Source: Bacilli bacterium
GTDB taxonomy: Bacteria; Bacillota_I; Bacilli_A; RF39; UBA660
Assembly: GCA_017887425.1 (NCBI GenBank)
Contig: JAGHHZ010000020.1
Location: 1-62,007, forward strand
DNA length: 62,007 bases
Direction of reading: 5' to 3'
Under the pieces are notes generated by a model, which was given only the letters and a program-made list of their open reading frames with translations, was not told the DNA's origin and did not search any database. Below, one piece after another: positions 18,334-58,856 of this stretch (positions within the stretch are counted from its first letter, which is position 1; every line of letters begins with the position of its first letter). A program made the translations under genes and the position numbers.

Positions 18334-18861
18334 ATGCGAGTAATAAGTGGCAAATACAAAGGAAAAGTTTTAGAAGGATTTAATATTAAAGGAACAAGAC
18401 CAACGATGGATCGAGTCAAAGAATCGATGTTTGCTAGTATTCAAAATTATTTGAAAGATGCAATTTGTTTAGACTTATTTGCTGGAAGTGGCAGTTTAGG
18501 AATTGAAGCCTTAAGTAATGGTGCCAAAAAATGCTATTTTGTCGATAATAATTCAGTTGCTATTGATAAAATTAAAAGAAACACTTTAGAAATCGACAAT
18601 AAAGAAATAATAAAAAGCGATTGCTTTAAAGCCTTATTAGATTTTAAAGATAAAGTTAAATTTGATATTATTTTATTAGATCCACCATATCATGATAATT
18701 TATTAAATAGAGTTTTAGAAAAAATAACGGAATATGACTTACTAAATGAAAATGGTATTATCGTTTGTGAACTAGAAGAAGATGTTTTAGACACCAAACT
18801 AACTTTACTTAAAGAAAAAAAATATGGTAGTAAAAAAGTTAAAATATTCACTCAAAAGTAA
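18334..18861 (+). CDS. rsmD: 16S rRNA m2G966 methyltransferase
   Basis: MRVISGKYKG, TRPT.DRVKE, LDLFAGSG, DPPY. Confidence 0.93.
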   Translation: MRVISGKYKGKVLEGFNIKGTRPTMDRVKESMFASIQNYLKDAICLDLFAGSGSLGIEALSNGAKKCYFVDNNSVAIDKIKRNTLEIDNKEIIKSDCFKALLDFKDKVKFDIILLDPPYHDNLLNRVLEKITEYDLLNENGIIVCELEEDVLDTKLTLLKEKKYGSKKVKIFTQK

Positions 18862-19001
18862 CGTAAATAAAACGTAAAAATTAAAAATTATGGTAACTAT
18901 AAATTAAAAAATGAAAGAAATTTCATTTTTTTTTAATTTTTTTCAAAAATAAAAAGGAAATCATCAACTTTTCGCCTATATAACTAGTAGGGAGGTAAAA
19001 A

Positions 19002-21050
19002 ATGTTTAAAAGAAATTTAATTAGACAAGATGGTTTTAAAGATTGTGGTCCGACATGTTTATCGATGATAATAAAACATTATAAAGGTTATATCGATATT
19101 AACGAACTAAAAGAAATGTGTAAGACCGATAAAAATGGAACAACTGCTTACCATTTAATTGAAACAGCTAAAAAATGTGGTTTTGAAAGTTATGGTGTTA
19201 AATGTAATCTAGAAGATATTAATAAAAATAATATTATCTTACCTTGTATAGCTCATGTAATATTAAATAACTCCTACAAACATTATGTTGTAATAAAAAA
19301 AATCGATTATAAAAAGAAAAAAATAACTGTATATGATCCAATAGGAACTATTAAAACGTATACATATGAAAACTTCCAAAAAATATTTAGTAATATAATC
19401 ATTCTTTTGTACCCTATTAAAGTTATCAAAAATATCCCCAATAACTCAATAAAAAAATTTATTTTAGAAATAACAAAAACCTCAACAAAACAATTAATTC
19501 AAATTATAATTATTTCGATTTTTATTACATTATTTTCCATTATAATTTCATTTTATCTGCAATACATGGTCGACAATGTTAATAATCAAGGAAAAATTTA
19601 TTTTATTTTCACGTTATTTTTAATTATTTATATTATGAAAATAATTTCTGACTTTCTAAGAAACAAAATCATTATTTTAGTTAATCAAAAAATCGATTTT
19701 AATCTTAATTATAATAGCTTTAAACAAATCATAAATCTCCCTTATTGTTACTACAAAAATAATACGACAGGTGAAATCATATCCAAAATAAATGATCTCG
19801 ATGTTGTACGACAAGTTATCAGTAAAGTTGCTATAAGTATCTTTATTGATTTACCGCTCACTTTATTATCTTTAATTATTATGTATATTTTAAATGAAAA
19901 GTTATTTATTATAAGTTTAATAATAATGCTCTTATATTGGTTGGTTTTAATACTATTTAGAAATCCTTTAAACGAAAAAATTGAGGATACAACTTTGGCC
20001 AAAGCCGACACTACTTCCTACATGGTCGAAAGAATTAATGGATATGAGACGTTAAAAGGTTGTAATAAAGAACATATAGCTCTTAAAAAATTTGAAGACA
20101 AATATGCTGCACTTTCTAATAAAATATACGATTTAGATAATTGTTATAATTATCAATTACTATTAAAAGAAATAATCAATGATTTAGGATTTATTTTTAT
20201 TATACTAATCGGTATTCTTTTAGTTAAAGATAATATTATAACAATTGGACAACTATTATCTTTTAACTCTTTATTAGTTTATTTTCTAACTCCGATTCGT
20301 AATATTATCGATTTAGATGATAGTATCAAACAATCTAAAATAGCTGTTAAAAAAATACTAAATTTATATTACGACAAAAAAGAAAATGGTATTTTAGATA
20401 AAAAGATGAAAGGAGAAATTATTTTTAAAAATTTAAGTTATACTTTTAATGATACAAGAAATGTTTTAGAAAACATTAATTTAAAGATAAACCAAAATAG
20501 TAAAGTTATGGTAATAGGTGAAAGTGGTAGTGGGAAAAGTACTTTATTTAAAATATTAAAAAAATACTATACGGTTCCCAGAGATAAAGTTTATATTGAT
20601 AATGTCGATATAAATGATTATCAAAAAAGCAATATTGTCTATGTTTCCCAAAATGAGATTTTATTTACAGATACGATTTCAAACAATATTGATAGTGACA
20701 ATATTATTGATATATCCAAAATATGTTTAATTGACGAAATAGTTAAAAATAATCAATTAGGTTATAATATGTTAATTGAAGAAAATGGCTTTAACCTATC
20801 AGGTGGTGAGCGACAAAGAATTATTTTAGCGCGTGCTTTAGCTAACGAATTTGATATTCTTATTATCGATGAAGGATTAAGTCAAGTTGATATTAATATG
20901 GAAAGAAAAATACTTAAAAATTTATTTGAAAATTATAATGATAAAACGATTATATTTATTTCTCATCGTCTAGAAAATATGGATTTATTTAACCAAGTAA
21001 TAAAATTAAAGAAAGGAAGAATAAGTGATGACTTATCCAAAAATATATAA
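19002..21050 (+). CDS. Peptidase C39-containing ABC transporter (double-glycine peptide exporter)
   Basis: QDGFKDCG (catalytic Cys), HYVV, VYDP; GESGSGKST; LSGGERQR; Walker B reads IIDE. Confidence 0.93.
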   Translation: MFKRNLIRQDGFKDCGPTCLSMIIKHYKGYIDINELKEMCKTDKNGTTAYHLIETAKKCGFESYGVKCNLEDINKNNIILPCIAHVILNNSYKHYVVIKKIDYKKKKITVYDPIGTIKTYTYENFQKIFSNIIILLYPIKVIKNIPNNSIKKFILEITKTSTKQLIQIIIISIFITLFSIIISFYLQYMVDNVNNQGKIYFIFTLFLIIYIMKIISDFLRNKIIILVNQKIDFNLNYNSFKQIINLPYCYYKNNTTGEIISKINDLDVVRQVISKVAISIFIDLPLTLLSLIIMYILNEKLFIISLIIMLLYWLVLILFRNPLNEKIEDTTLAKADTTSYMVERINGYETLKGCNKEHIALKKFEDKYAALSNKIYDLDNCYNYQLLLKEIINDLGFIFIILIGILLVKDNIITIGQLLSFNSLLVYFLTPIRNIIDLDDSIKQSKIAVKKILNLYYDKKENGILDKKMKGEIIFKNLSYTFNDTRNVLENINLKINQNSKVMVIGESGSGKSTLFKILKKYYTVPRDKVYIDNVDINDYQKSNIVYVSQNEILFTDTISNNIDSDNIIDISKICLIDEIVKNNQLGYNMLIEENGFNLSGGERQRIILARALANEFDILIIDEGLSQVDINMERKILKNLFENYNDKTIIFISHRLENMDLFNQVIKLKKGRISDDLSKNI

Positions 21051-21483
21051 TAATTTTCCATATATTTTAAATCAAAAAACTTCCAAAGTTGTAAAAATAT
21101 GGATACTATTCCTTATCCTTTCTTTTATAATTTTCCTTATTATTGCTTTTAATTATAAATATTATAACTATAAAACATATTTAGGATATATAAAAAAAAT
21201 TGATAATTCTTTACATCCGTCTTTTTATGTAAGAGAAGACGAAGTAGGGAACTTATCAAACTATGAATTATTGATAGATAATGAAAAACATAGCTTTCAA
21301 ATAATATCTATTAGTAATCAGTATTATCTTATTGATAATCAACCGTTTTATGAAGTTGTTATAAAAACGAATTTACCTGATAAATATTTAATTGAAAATA
21401 ATATCATAAATTTAGTTTTTAAAATGAATCAAACAACATTATATCAAGAATTTAGAAAGGAATTTAATTTATGGAAAAACTAA
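21028..21483 (+). CDS. Short single-TM accessory export protein (truncated HlyD/ComB-like)
   Basis: Overlaps the transporter stop; one TM plus ~110-aa soluble domain; assignment from position. Confidence 0.55.
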   Translation: MTYPKIYNNFPYILNQKTSKVVKIWILFLILSFIIFLIIAFNYKYYNYKTYLGYIKKIDNSLHPSFYVREDEVGNLSNYELLIDNEKHSFQIISISNQYYLIDNQPFYEVVIKTNLPDKYLIENNIINLVFKMNQTTLYQEFRKEFNLWKN

Positions 21484-21611
21484 ATAAAAAAGATTTAATG
21501 AGTGTTAATGGTGGTGGAATAACTTTAGGTGTAGGCTTACTTATTGGTGCGGGAGTAGTTTTTATAATCGGTGTTATTGATGGTTTTATGCGACCACTTA
21601 AATGCAATTAG
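21471..21611 (+). CDS. Double-glycine leader peptide 1 (46 aa; not in ORF track)
   Basis: MEKLNKKDLMSVNGG|GITLGVGLLIGAGVVFIIGVIDGFMRPLKCN; RBS AAAGGA. Confidence 0.85.
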   Translation: MEKLNKKDLMSVNGGGITLGVGLLIGAGVVFIIGVIDGFMRPLKCN

Positions 21612-21622
21612 GAGGTGAAAAT

Positions 21623-21784
21623 ATGTTAGAAAAACAAGAATTATTGCAAATAGTTGGTGGTATAAGTATAACTGGTAGCTTAATAAATGCAATTCATCGC
21701 GGAATATCAACTATTATGGATGTTGGAAGAAGTTTAGGTAGTGCCATTAGAAGAGCTATCGGAGGTACTATGTGTCCAATTTAA
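21623..21784 (+). CDS. Double-glycine leader peptide 2 (53 aa)
   Basis: MLEKQELLQIVGG|ISITGSLINAIHRG...MCPI; RBS GGAGGTG. Confidence 0.85.
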   Translation: MLEKQELLQIVGGISITGSLINAIHRGISTIMDVGRSLGSAIRRAIGGTMCPI

Positions 21785-21927
21785 TAAGAAAAAATTACAA
21801 ATTAATTTTAACATTGCTCATTATAATTTGCTTACTTCCTATTTTCCCTATTTGTATTGAAATAATTTTTAAATTAGGAACAATTGTCGGTAGTACCATT
21901 AGAACTCTATCTACTTGTTCTATTTAA
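21772..21927 (+). CDS. Small hydrophobic peptide 3 (51 aa, no GG leader; not in ORF track)
   Basis: GGAGGT at 21761-21766 then GTG; MSNLIRKNYKLILTLLIIICLLPIFPICIEIIFKLGTIVGSTIRTLSTCSI; terminator follows. Confidence 0.7.
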   Translation: MSNLIRKNYKLILTLLIIICLLPIFPICIEIIFKLGTIVGSTIRTLSTCSI

Positions 21928-21932
21928 AATAG

Positions 21933-21970
21933 AATGGCTTATTCAATGAATAAGTTCATTCTTTTTTTTG
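21933..21970 (+). terminator. Intrinsic terminator of the peptide cluster
   Basis: GAATGGCTTATTC-AAT-GAATAAGTTCATTC followed by T-run. Confidence 0.65.
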
Positions 21971-22088
21971 TTATTTCCGATTAAAACATTAAATAATTAA
22001 TAATTTATTTAATTTACTTTTAAAAACTATTGAAAACAAAAGAAAAAAGTGCTATAATGTCAAGTAGTTGTACGGAAGGAGGGATCAT

Positions 22089-22280
22089 ATGTCTAAAGTC
22101 GTTGTCAAAAATGGGAACGTTGATGGTGCATTGAAAATGTTTAAACAAAAAAATGTTAAAGATGGCCTCCTAAAAGAAGTAAGAAAAAGAGAACATTATA
22201 GCAAACCAGGAGAAAGACGAAGAGAAGCTAAAAAAGAAGCTATTAAAAATAGTCGTCGTCGTGAAAGAAATTATAACTAA
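22089..22280 (+). CDS. rpsU: 30S ribosomal protein S21
   Basis: EVRKREHYSKPGERRR. Confidence 0.93.
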   Translation: MSKVVVKNGNVDGALKMFKQKNVKDGLLKEVRKREHYSKPGERRREAKKEAIKNSRRRERNYN

Positions 22281-25297: not shown

Positions 25298-26987
<1,690 letters not shown>

Positions 26988-50041: not shown

Positions 50042-51037
50042 ATGGAATATGAACTAAAAAAAGAAGATTATGAAGATATTAATAGTCTAATAATGATAAG
50101 TGCCCAAATAAAAGATTTATATGATGAATTATATAAACTAGAATTAAATGGTAAAAAAGGTACAAGTGAATATCAAGCAGTAATTACTAGACTAAAATCA
50201 TCTCTTTTTGTTGAGGATAATATTTATGGACGAATTGGTGATGATTATGATAAAAATCTTCAGATTTTAAAATACTTAAATCAAAATAATCGTTTAGAAG
50301 AATTTGAAAGAAAAATACCAATTTTTAGCCCCAATTTAGTAATGGCTAGAATAAGTGCTAAATTAACTAGAAATATCATATTGAAAACTGGAAACATTAT
50401 TCCTGATGAAGTTAAATATTTTTTAGAAATAAATGGTATATCAAGTAAAGAACTAACTGATTCACTTTCAACTTCTATAAACGTTAAAGAAAGTATTACT
50501 TTAGACCTTATGAATTGTCTTTTAGCAATTATTGAAGACAAACAACACCCAGATAAAGATGTTAATAATCAATTAAAAGAAACAAAATATACCGTTAGTT
50601 ACTTATATCATAAAGTAGAGAAGTCTTTATTAGAAAATGGCTTTGAAATTGAGAAAAATCCTTATGTTGAGACGCTTTTAGTTGGTCAAATGAGTCATTG
50701 GCCAAAAGAAATTATTGAGAAAATAAAACAATTATATGGTATAGAATATTATAATCAAGCTATAAATGCTATGTTAGTTTATGAAGATGAAGATTTAAAA
50801 GATAAAAATATAATGACTAAAATGATAGTATACCAATCATTTTTAAGAACGATTTTTCTTTTATTCGATGGGGATACAATTATGGATTTAAACTCTAAAT
50901 TCCACGATTTAATCGATGATGATAAGATGCAAAAAGTTTTTTCAACTAGAAAAGAAGTGGTTGAAATGATTATAAATGCTTACAGAAAAGTAAAAAATGA
51001 TAAAAACATTCCTAAAATAATTTCATTAAAATTATAA
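50042..51037 (+). CDS. Hypothetical protein
   Basis: 331-aa ORF, AAAGGGGGA RBS, no recognised motif. Confidence 0.75.
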   Translation: MEYELKKEDYEDINSLIMISAQIKDLYDELYKLELNGKKGTSEYQAVITRLKSSLFVEDNIYGRIGDDYDKNLQILKYLNQNNRLEEFERKIPIFSPNLVMARISAKLTRNIILKTGNIIPDEVKYFLEINGISSKELTDSLSTSINVKESITLDLMNCLLAIIEDKQHPDKDVNNQLKETKYTVSYLYHKVEKSLLENGFEIEKNPYVETLLVGQMSHWPKEIIEKIKQLYGIEYYNQAINAMLVYEDEDLKDKNIMTKMIVYQSFLRTIFLLFDGDTIMDLNSKFHDLIDDDKMQKVFSTRKEVVEMIINAYRKVKNDKNIPKIISLKL

Positions 51038-51636: not shown

Positions 51637-51891
51637 ATGAACGAATTTATGGATATTATGAGACTAATGAACAATGGTCTAAATAATGAAAGTACTTTAA
51701 AAGAAACTTACCCTAGAATTGTTAAGTTAGCTTTACTTAAGAATCCTGGTAATATCGATAAAGTAACCGCATGGATGTTACCTGAAGAATGTTTTTCTCG
51801 TCCTCATCCTGGGTTAAATGAAGTAGTATCAGCTTGTCAAGAAGTAGTTCCAACAATGGAACAATCTATCGAACAGCCGAGAGTTAGATAA
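51637..51891 (+). CDS. Hypothetical protein
   Basis: 84-aa ORF, RBS GAAGGAG. Confidence 0.6.
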   Translation: MNEFMDIMRLMNNGLNNESTLKETYPRIVKLALLKNPGNIDKVTAWMLPEECFSRPHPGLNEVVSACQEVVPTMEQSIEQPRVR

Positions 51892-51894
51892 ACT

Positions 51895-52085
51895 GTGAAA
51901 AAGAAGTAGTACTAAAAGCAATTATTTATAGAGAGAATGTGGTTGGTGGAAACATTTGATAATCTTTTAGGAATTCACCTTTGGAGTTTGTTTTGGTGAC
52001 GCGTTATAGTCAAAAAGGTAGTTAATCTACAAATTAAGGTGGTACCACGAGCAATTCGTCCTTTGGGATAAATTGCTTTTTATTT
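51895..52085 (+). promoter_or_regulatory. T-box riboswitch (Phe)
   Basis: AGAGA and GGTGGAA in stem I; specifier TTC at 51974-51976; AAGGTGGTACCACG at 52036-52049; terminator; upstream of pheS. Confidence 0.92.
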
Positions 52086-58303: not shown

Positions 58304-58720
58304 CTAAATTTCTTTATAGAAATAAGTAGTATCTTTAACTAGATAATCATTTTTTAAATATAGACTATGAGCTGACAATCTTCTTTTATTAGATGTAAAT
58401 TCGATTGAATTTACATTTTTTTCTTTAGCAATTTCTTCAACTTTTTTAAGAAGTAATGTTCCAATTCCTTGATTTCTTTCGCTACTAGCTACACAGACAT
58501 AATTAAGATAAAAAGCAGTTTTATTTTTAATAATATCATTTCTAATATCGATCATAATATGACCAATAACATTGTTATCTTTAACCGCAATTAAACTTAA
58601 ATAAGGACTATTTTTTAATGATTCAATTATGTTTTCTTTAGTATTTATGTCAGGAAAACTTTCCAAAATTAGACTAGCTAATGATTCATATTCGTCAGTT
58701 AAATATTTAATTTCAAGCAT
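58304..58720 (-). CDS. GNAT acetyltransferase
   Basis: VCVASSERNQGIGTLLL, AHSLYLKNDY. Confidence 0.88.
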   Translation of the reverse strand: MLEIKYLTDEYESLASLILESFPDINTKENIIESLKNSPYLSLIAVKDNNVIGHIMIDIRNDIIKNKTAFYLNYVCVASSERNQGIGTLLLKKVEEIAKEKNVNSIEFTSNKRRLSAHSLYLKNDYLVKDTTYFYKEI

Positions 58721-58856
58721 AACATCACCCAATTTAATTATATTATTAAATTAAGTTGTTGTAAAGATTTAATATCTAATAAAATTCATAAAAATTAAAT
58801 AATATGTAAGTGTTTAGGATTAAATATGATATAATTAAATTGTTGAGGTGAAGTGT

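Follow-up and report, generated by a model that had tools for sequence, protein, structure and literature searches.

The analysed window, 62,007 nucleotides (nt) of a Bacilli bacterium (GenBank assembly GCA_017887425.1, contig JAGHHZ010000020.1), carries five plus-strand genes between rsmD and rpsU, which encode a peptidase-containing ATP-binding cassette (ABC) exporter, a protein of 152 amino acids (aa), and three short peptides, here called peptides 1, 2, and 3. With moderate confidence, we read this operon as a class IIb-like two-peptide killing factor that would be timed with competence and sporulation and accompanied by a toxin-derived immunity peptide. The features of the locus are as follows.

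18334-18861, plus strand: rsmD, the upstream flanking gene.
18908..18936, plus strand: hairpin and T-run, the rsmD terminator and the upstream part of a repeated terminator-and-promoter cassette.
18955..18984, plus strand: sigma-H-type promoter, with -35 element AGGAAAT (18955-18961) and -10 region CGCCTATATAAC (18973-18984).
19002..21050, plus strand: peptidase-containing ABC exporter, 682 aa, with a C39 domain, a six-transmembrane (6-TM) domain, and an ATPase, from Pfam.
21025..21483, plus strand: 152-aa single-pass membrane protein, read as a minimal membrane-fusion-protein-like accessory.
21471..21611, plus strand: peptide 1 precursor, 46 aa; a 15-aa double-glycine (GG) leader, MEKLNKKDLMSVNGG, then a 31-aa mature part, GITLG...KCN.
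21623..21784, plus strand: peptide 2 precursor, 53 aa; a 13-aa GG leader, MLEKQELLQIVGG, then a 40-aa mature part, ISITG...MCPI.
21772..21927, plus strand: peptide 3, 51 aa, leaderless; a basic N-terminal stretch, a transmembrane (TM) helix, and a peptide-2-like C-terminal helix.
21926..21968, plus strand: intrinsic terminator of the operon; a hairpin of -13.3 kcal/mol (z-score -3.2), then U8.
22068-22280: rpsU, with its own near-consensus promoter (TTGAAA-17-TATAAT) at 22030.

The genes for peptides 1 and 2 are 11 nt apart on the same strand, between one promoter and one terminator. The original prediction, made from the letters of the DNA, had placed a C39/GG-leader system with two exported peptides at this site; the open reading frames (ORFs) of the transporter, the accessory protein, and the three peptides are each present where it had put them and had been quoted correctly, rsmD and rpsU are indeed the neighbors, and the Pfam domains together with the leaders support the assignment.

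The exporter matches Peptidase_C39 (PF03412, 6e-33), ABC_membrane (PF00664, 6e-35), and ABC_tran (PF00005, 7e-24) above the cut-offs, and the motifs Q-x5-DCG (QDGFKDCG), HYVV, and DP, as well as Walker A and B, can be read from its sequence. It combines an N-terminal C39 domain containing the catalytic Cys/His/Asp with a 6-TM domain and an ABC ATPase, i.e., all the features that define a peptidase-containing ABC transporter. Over the whole protein, the score against TIGR01193 (bacteriocin_ABC) is 401.8 bits, which lies under the curated cut-off of 523.85; the exporter is therefore a divergent member. In the genus and its near relatives, the median ratios of nonsynonymous to synonymous substitution (dN/dS) are 0.19-0.44 across all five genes (0.25 for the exporter, 0.44 for the 152-aa gene, 0.22 for peptide 1, 0.19 for peptide 2, and 0.32 for peptide 3, the last likewise under purifying selection). 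A decaying copy of the locus was also encountered in one relative (L089, contig CAMVNW010000043.1), in which stop codons interrupt peptide 1 and the exporter ORF is down to 565 aa, with peptides 2 and 3 still intact.

The mature part of peptide 1 is hydrophobic and GxxxG-rich and terminates in RPLKCN, and that of peptide 2 is cationic and amphipathic, carries the motif GRSLGSAIRR, and terminates in CPI; small-residue motifs of the helix-packing kind (GxxxG or GxxxS) are found in both, and the two mature parts resemble a class IIb pair. The ATG at 21623, which is preceded by AGGAGG, is most likely the start codon of peptide 2. Peptide 1 scores 27.9 bits against TIGR03949 (cut-off 21.5), in a match that involves mostly the leader and the Gly-rich start, and one of its relatives bears the NCBI name 'class IIb bacteriocin, lactobin A/cerein 7B family'. 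Neither Pfam nor NCBIfam has a family for peptide 2, the relatives of which are unnamed; the leader profiles of the two peptides align with an E-value of 4e-9. Two adjacent GG-leader genes in one operon constitute the class IIb layout, with the 13-aa leader of peptide 2 falling just under the usual 15-30 aa. The best-conserved stretches are motifs of the mature regions, namely IGVIDGYxRPLKCN in peptide 1 and GRSLG[ST]AIRR...CP in peptide 2, the latter being varied in distant loci, e.g., as GKAFGSALRR and GQALGSSLRR.

Loci were sampled from 28 relatives and from 80 species-representative genomes found by the pattern GRSLG[ST]AIRR, and locus counts refer to 90 loci unless another total is given. 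The 80 pattern-selected genomes are uncultured gut metagenome-assembled genomes labelled Bacilli, Mollicutes, or Tenericutes, among them Candidatus Faecisoma merdavium of the window's genus. Peptide 2 is encoded in 28/30 genomes of the genus and in all seven other sampled genera of the family, and a profile search of the order recovered it in 289/301 genomes and 126/127 genera, mostly in single copy. The distribution is thus near universal, and the patchiness that had been considered possible is not seen. Synteny of the complete cluster is kept within the genus and family, and its usual place is directly upstream of rpsU-yqeY. A search of the literature on bacteriocins of RFN20 bacteria or SigH-linked two-peptide bacteriocins returned nothing on this system.

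The genomes sampled in the order measure 0.6-1.6 Mb, and a core-gene frequency and synteny of this kind in such genomes would also suit peptides that serve the envelope of the producer itself, e.g., as a channel or a lysis/holin-like device for the release of DNA or spores, with peptide 3 and the accessory protein as assembly partners; their role would then be structural, in housekeeping or development, instead of antagonistic. The same idea would accommodate the apparent co-regulation with DNA uptake and recombination genes through a shared promoter motif, as well as the loss of the accessory gene together with peptide 3 while the peptides are retained, both of which are described below. We nevertheless hold it to be improbable: to our knowledge, GG-leader peptides have no precedent as structural components of a membrane, and peptide 1 scores above the curated cut-off of a bacteriocin family. 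Moreover, two peptides followed by a small TM protein represent the standard class IIb layout (PMC2850506, PMC6957408).

All three peptides of the window have a Cys within the last three residues, as had been noted before. The single near-C-terminal Cys of both peptides 1 and 2 is kept in 89/90 loci; in the sole exception, it is gone from both, and peptide 3 is gone too. Since each exported peptide has one Cys, only an intermolecular bond or a free thiol can be formed, and a heterodimer disulfide between peptides 1 and 2 is possible on the strength of the one joint Cys loss. The disulfide linkage that had been suggested as possible is thus supported only indirectly; the Cys of peptide 3 is present in 57/73 loci and absent from 16/73. 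A CxxC thioredoxin-like lipoprotein is encoded in this genome at C7:2594-2920.

Extra short GG-leader peptides occur in three relatives: in L144 (G355:C13), leader MLYLTDDELASINGG precedes SLIISCPSYTIFIKVYRFVVNLFLGK in a gene standing alone behind a sigma-H-type promoter; in L070 (3384-3524), leader MKELENNELKEINGG precedes CLWSKKIIHAVTKLIYGFINRLAII between peptides 2 and 3; and in L035 (4626-4754), leader MINITNEELKKISGG precedes CNWRRIVVLLRYLCRFI. By size and charge, these are nearer to peptide pheromones.

Peptide 3 follows peptide 2 in 73/90 loci, so that the doubt raised in the original prediction as to its conservation is answered by both its frequency and its dN/dS, which mark it as a real gene. 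In the window, it begins with a GTG placed 6 nt behind GGAGG, and the two genes overlap where peptide 2 ends. Of 68 loci, 45 start with ATG and 23 with GTG; in 44/68, the start codon falls on the conserved Cys codon of peptide 2, exactly 12 nt ahead of the last letter of the peptide 2 stop codon, and a Shine-Dalgarno-like sequence is present in only 22/68. This overlap geometry suggests that translation of peptide 3 is coupled to that of peptide 2 by termination-reinitiation. Profile-profile comparison with hhalign aligns the peptide 2 and peptide 3 families with a probability of 92% and an E-value of 6e-7 over the C-terminal 26-30 columns, including the Cys, with the common columns reading G-x3-G-[ST]-x-I-R ... 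C. The controls were negative, i.e., peptide 1 against peptide 3 gave an E-value of 0.38, and peptide 1 matched peptide 2 in the leader only. By this comparison, the tail of peptide 3 is paralogous to the C-terminal half of peptide 2, and the resemblance that had been pointed out between them is beyond chance. In genomes without peptide 3, a genome-wide search with its profile weakly matches peptide 2 and nothing else.

An AF2 model of peptide 3 consists of a single long helix (residues 9-49, pLDDT 82.6), and the succession of a basic N-terminus, a hydrophobic stretch, and an amphipathic tail is suggestive of an N-in, tail-out topology. Pfam and NCBIfam searches assigned peptide 3 to no family; its assignment as a lipoprotein or Sec substrate was dropped, as the alignments show no conserved lipobox. 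Peptide 3 is thus a candidate immunity or decoy peptide. Its conservation, purifying selection, and paralogous tail agree with the mimic or immunity role that had been proposed for it, whereas 17/90 loci have no copy. Its absence there means that it is not an obligatory third component, as the original prediction had also considered.

The 152-aa protein was modelled with AF2 from 41 sequences (pLDDT 86.9), and the model comprises a TM helix (21-43), a beta-barrel (45-138), and a terminal helix. In a Foldseek search of the PDB, about 85 residues align to the beta-barrels of BesA, ZneB, MacA, EmrA, and Spr0693, with probabilities of 0.7-0.9, a root-mean-square deviation of ~4.3 Å, and E-values of 0.3-0.9. 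None of 41 members of the family gives a Pfam or NCBIfam match, and a PDB sequence search, made in the hunt for families of the unassigned operon proteins, returned noise only. Of the features of the HlyD/LcnD-type family, the lipoyl domain, the alpha-hairpin, and the hidden Markov model match are lacking. From the modelled fold, the protein may be a minimal adaptor-like accessory, though one that lies outside the HlyD/LcnD family by these tests.

The 152-aa gene is kept in 65/90 loci. Among 79 exporter sequences, the accessory gene and peptide 3 are both present in 59 and both lacking in 12, with peptide 3 alone lacking in 5 and the accessory gene alone in 3; in 11 of the genomes with neither, both are absent genome-wide, and the positive controls were found. 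The exporter tree distributes ten of these rows over three separately supported clades with long exporter branches, and a single clade for them is rejected by an approximately unbiased test (p 0.0003) that was run on 39 rows under a simpler model, with the constrained group chosen after the tree was seen. As they lie on either side of the peptide genes, the accessory gene and peptide 3 cannot both be removed by a single deletion. The two were lost together in at least 2-3 lineages, and a coupling between them is suggestive, though not proven.

Such joint absence of two non-adjacent genes, in lineages whose exporter lies on long branches, could mean that peptide 3 is a third partner of the toxin or the exporter, e.g., a membrane subunit that works with the 152-aa protein in the export or processing of peptide 2, and the likely coupling of its translation to peptide 2 could be taken in the same sense. 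We find this very unlikely. Single losses occur too, as 5 rows have the accessory gene but not peptide 3 and 3 rows have peptide 3 but not the accessory gene, and export evidently continues where both genes are missing, because the peptides and the exporter are intact there. In addition, the position and size of peptide 3 match the immunity protein CbnZ, which has one transmembrane domain (PMC6957408), and the mimic-type peptide GIP (PMC10100652).

Within the ~60 nt before the exporter start, many loci of the order contain a similar promoter-like block, whatever the upstream gene, in which the terminator of the preceding gene is followed by AGGA(A/T)(A/T)(A/T), a spacer of 11-12 nt, and a -10 region. 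In Listeria, the sigma-H consensus is (A/G)(A/C)AGG(A/G)WWW, 11/12 nt, and (A/G)(A/G)(A/C)GAA(A/T), and sigma-H drives comGA, comEA, and coiA (PMC4754846). The window promoter matches this consensus at -35 (AAAGGAAAT, 12-nt spacer) and has GCCTATA instead of RRMGAAW at -10. Other genera have AGGAAAT-N11/12-RNNGAAT at the same place, and many read AAAGGAAAT-N12-GTAGAAT, a full match to the consensus.

Within the genome of the window, the 30-nt consensus AGGAAATNNNNNACTTTTNNNCTATATAAC has 8 matches at no more than 4 mismatches, compared with 0 in the reversed control. These precede the present operon (18955), comEA-comEC, recG, dnaG-sigA, two Rpn-like genes, a restriction-enzyme-like gene, and the gene for a 628-aa secreted protein that precedes spoIIAA. 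A strict sigma-H regular expression gave 3 chance-like matches in this genome and missed the window promoter, because the genus uses a variant -10 region. In eight genomes of other genera, the pattern has 41 matches compared with 7 in the reversed control, located upstream of the exporter operon, comEA-comEC, a comK-like gene, spoIIAA with a sigma-F-like gene, another GG-leader peptide, Rpn/PDDEXK-type genes, a UvrD-like helicase, and secreted proteins, the genes being named here from sequence alone. A 202-aa sigH-like ORF (C16:44002-44583) matches TIGR02859 over its full length with 108 bits, below the equivalog cut-off, and spo0A is also present. On these grounds, the operon probably belongs to a sigma-H-type transition-state regulon that includes genes for a DNA receptor and channel.

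Several further observations concern this promoter class. The sigH-like gene lies directly upstream of dnaG-sigA, which has a sigma-H-type motif (C16:45195) with 4 mismatches; in B. subtilis, the sigA operon carries a sigma-H promoter. A cassette of ~110-130 base pairs, composed of an AT-rich stretch, the hairpin aaatgaaagaaatttcattttttttt, and a sigma-H-type promoter, occurs at no fewer than five places in the genome, i.e., at least 5, each before a different gene (window 18866-18984; C4:~66900-67014; C4:~58640-58744, minus strand; C14:~50690-50788, minus strand; C25:~25690-25797). About 75 nt of it, including the hairpin at 18908..18936, recur before comEA, two Rpn-like genes, and the gene for the 628-aa secreted protein, and the cassette looks like a portable terminator-and-promoter module. 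Multi-copy Rpn/PDDEXK genes of the 'putative transposase' type, seen in G357, G355, and the genome of the window with up to 8 copies per genome, have near-identical sigma-H-type promoters and would therefore be expressed with the DNA-uptake genes. Three direct TTCGACA repeats that resemble Spo0A boxes (tttcgacacaattcgacaaatttcgacaat) are present before the comK-like gene of this genome (C13, ~6418, minus strand), and words like TGTCGAA or TTCGACA are also located upstream of spoIIAA (C25) and spo0A (C20).

A promoter of this type could equally belong to a signal, since sigma-H of B. subtilis drives the phr signalling-peptide genes. The exported peptides would then be a lineage-wide, transition-state pheromone pair that coordinates competence or sporulation, with peptide 3 and the 152-aa protein as sensor or signal modulator. 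Near-universal conservation in single copy, purifying selection on the mature peptides, and the loci that hold the peptides without an immunity candidate are all in keeping with this proposal, and pheromones of the ComC and BlpC types are also exported by C39 exporters, according to a passage in PMC7018657. However, no receptor is linked to the operon, and the cytoplasmic parts of peptide 3 and the 152-aa protein, at ~10-20 residues, are too short for signalling. The mature peptide 1 is a near-fully hydrophobic GxxxG helix of 31 aa, which is typical of membrane insertion and not of soluble pheromones. The sole AgrC/ComD-type kinase of this genome with a LytTR regulator adjoins agrB and agrD, its own signal; it was considered as the peptide sensor and rejected, since AgrB and AgrD place it in an agrBDCA system, and there is therefore no receptor for the peptides in view. 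We accordingly regard a pheromone pair as rather unlikely. The developmental idea that had been suggested earlier gains support as far as regulation is concerned, through the sigma-H-type promoter common to this operon and comEA-comEC, whereas a pure signal has no visible receptor.

The agr system itself comprises the LytTR regulator, an AgrC-like kinase of 435 aa, AgrB, and an AgrD-like precursor of 36-39 aa (…CFVVIVDEPECPK). It is split over two contig ends in this genome (C15:132-2143 and C7:507-1273, both on the minus strand) and is found at 3667-6527 in L118.

Returning to the two-peptide killing factor, we propose that the sigma-H-type promoter would drive a single transcript, which would run from 18955 as far as the terminator (~21968). 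Peptides 1 and 2 would be cut after GG by the C39 domain and released by the exporter, presumably with assistance from the 152-aa protein. Once exported, peptide 1, with its hydrophobic GxxxG character, and peptide 2, which is cationic and amphipathic, would pair in the target membrane, and their near-C-terminal single cysteines may link them by a disulfide. Peptide 3, made by re-initiation at the end of peptide 2, would be anchored in the producer membrane with its peptide-2-like helix outside and could protect the cell by competing with peptide 2. The system would fire on entry into competence or early sporulation, because comEA-comEC and further genes of the transition state have promoters of the same type, and neighbors outside that state or of other taxa would be lysed, with the release of DNA and nutrients.

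Parts of this scheme have counterparts in known systems. Gallocin A of Streptococcus gallolyticus (gllA1-gllA2-gip) is a GG-leader two-peptide bacteriocin with the immunity gene directly downstream; the immunity peptide is similar to the toxin peptides and has been proposed to act by competition, and activity needs cysteines/disulfides, with the involvement of a surface thioredoxin-like protein (PMC10100652). The idea that this immunity peptide derives from the toxin rests on modelled shapes only. In the present locus, by contrast, the likeness between peptides 3 and 2 is seen in the sequence, is confined to the C-terminal half, and is joined to a TM anchor. Both systems have two GG peptides and a small third gene, and the CxxC lipoprotein at C7:2594-2920 adds to the likeness. 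The bonds of gallocin A are intramolecular, whereas a single Cys per peptide would here allow only an intermolecular bond or a free thiol; also unlike gallocin A, the exporter and the small accessory gene are inside the operon, which is order-wide and syntenic. Its promoter is of the sigma-H type, whereas gallocin A is reportedly regulated by a Blp-like two-component system.

The cibABC operon of Streptococcus pneumoniae encodes a two-peptide bacteriocin and the immunity protein CibC, is transcribed by the competence sigma factor ComX, and mediates fratricide, in which DNA is freed from cells that are lysed for want of the immunity factor (PMC5295010). The likeness is one of layout and regulation, as both operons contain two peptides and a small immunity-type gene under a promoter type common with DNA-uptake genes. 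However, cibABC relies on a separate exporter, ComAB, whereas the present operon begins with a dedicated exporter gene of its own; the sigma factor is here sigH-like, in a lineage with spo0A and spoIIA, and conservation is order-wide instead of being limited to a species group.

Among classical class IIb operons, carnobacteriocin XY with CbnZ and lactococcin G with LagC have short immunity proteins (PMC6957408, PMC2850506), which can contain a single transmembrane domain, as in CbnZ (PMC6957408). The adjacent GG-leader genes, the GxxxG-type motifs, the adjoining immunity-type gene, and the C39 ABC transporter with an accessory protein are common to these and the present locus. The differences comprise the short leader of peptide 2 (13 aa compared with the usual 15-30), the lack of a patchy strain-level distribution, and the accessory protein, which has 152 aa with the membrane-fusion beta-barrel only and is much shorter than the usual LcnD/HlyD-type. 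That type has ~450 aa. A further parallel is YknWXYZ of Bacillus subtilis, in which an ABC transporter, a membrane-fusion-like protein, and a small membrane protein together shield the cell from a killing factor of its own making, the SDP cannibalism toxin produced at the onset of sporulation; unlike the present exporter, it has no C39 domain and is not encoded with the toxin genes.

Several points weigh against a sigma-H-timed killing factor with its own immunity peptide. As regards the promoter, the window's genus has CTAT or TAAT followed by ATAAC and not GAAT at -10 (own-genome variant CTATATAAC); the strict sigma-H consensus is found in only 10/80 loci (0/80 controls) and the relaxed two-block pattern in only 38/80 (3/80 controls); and the motif, although expected before the pilus ATPase operons of this genome, was not found there. 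As regards the accessory protein, Foldseek returned nothing from the PDB with an E-value below 0.1, and its matches are not significant; a sign test for correlated loss on independent pairs had only 3 pairs available, with which significance is unreachable; and the peptides and exporter persist in the lineages without the accessory gene and peptide 3, which speaks against immunity being absolutely required. As regards immunity, both peptides and the exporter are kept without peptide 3 in 17/90 loci, with no copy anywhere in 11 such genomes, and either the peptides are therefore not self-toxic or immunity lies elsewhere. Bacteriocin loci usually differ from strain to strain, and the order-wide strength of mature-peptide conservation, the single copy, and the fixed place by rpsU are unusual for bacteriocins; the motif conservation in the 80 loci is partly built in, because they were picked by GRSLG[ST]AIRR. 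The fully elaborated form of the proposal, in which an order-wide core lysis weapon would consist of a disulfide heterodimer, with a toxin-derived membrane decoy and a mini membrane-fusion-like protein on the exporter, and would be the standard means by which the lineage obtains DNA and nutrients once sigma-H turns on DNA uptake, is doubtful as a whole.

Elsewhere in the window, a T-box leader (RF00230) is located at 51886-52066 on the plus strand (104.5 bits), and this is the sole Rfam family above the gathering score.

The locus offers a clear example, visible in the sequence, of a candidate immunity gene that stems from the toxin it would counter, and the promoter motif offers a way to define the sigma-H regulon in uncultured organisms. 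In over 120 genera of uncultured gut bacteria, whose genomes are near 1 Mb, a complete export-plus-peptide module is here maintained with the constancy of a housekeeping gene. If the two-peptide killing factor is real, the killing or lysis of neighbors would be a basic part of the lifestyle of this lineage.

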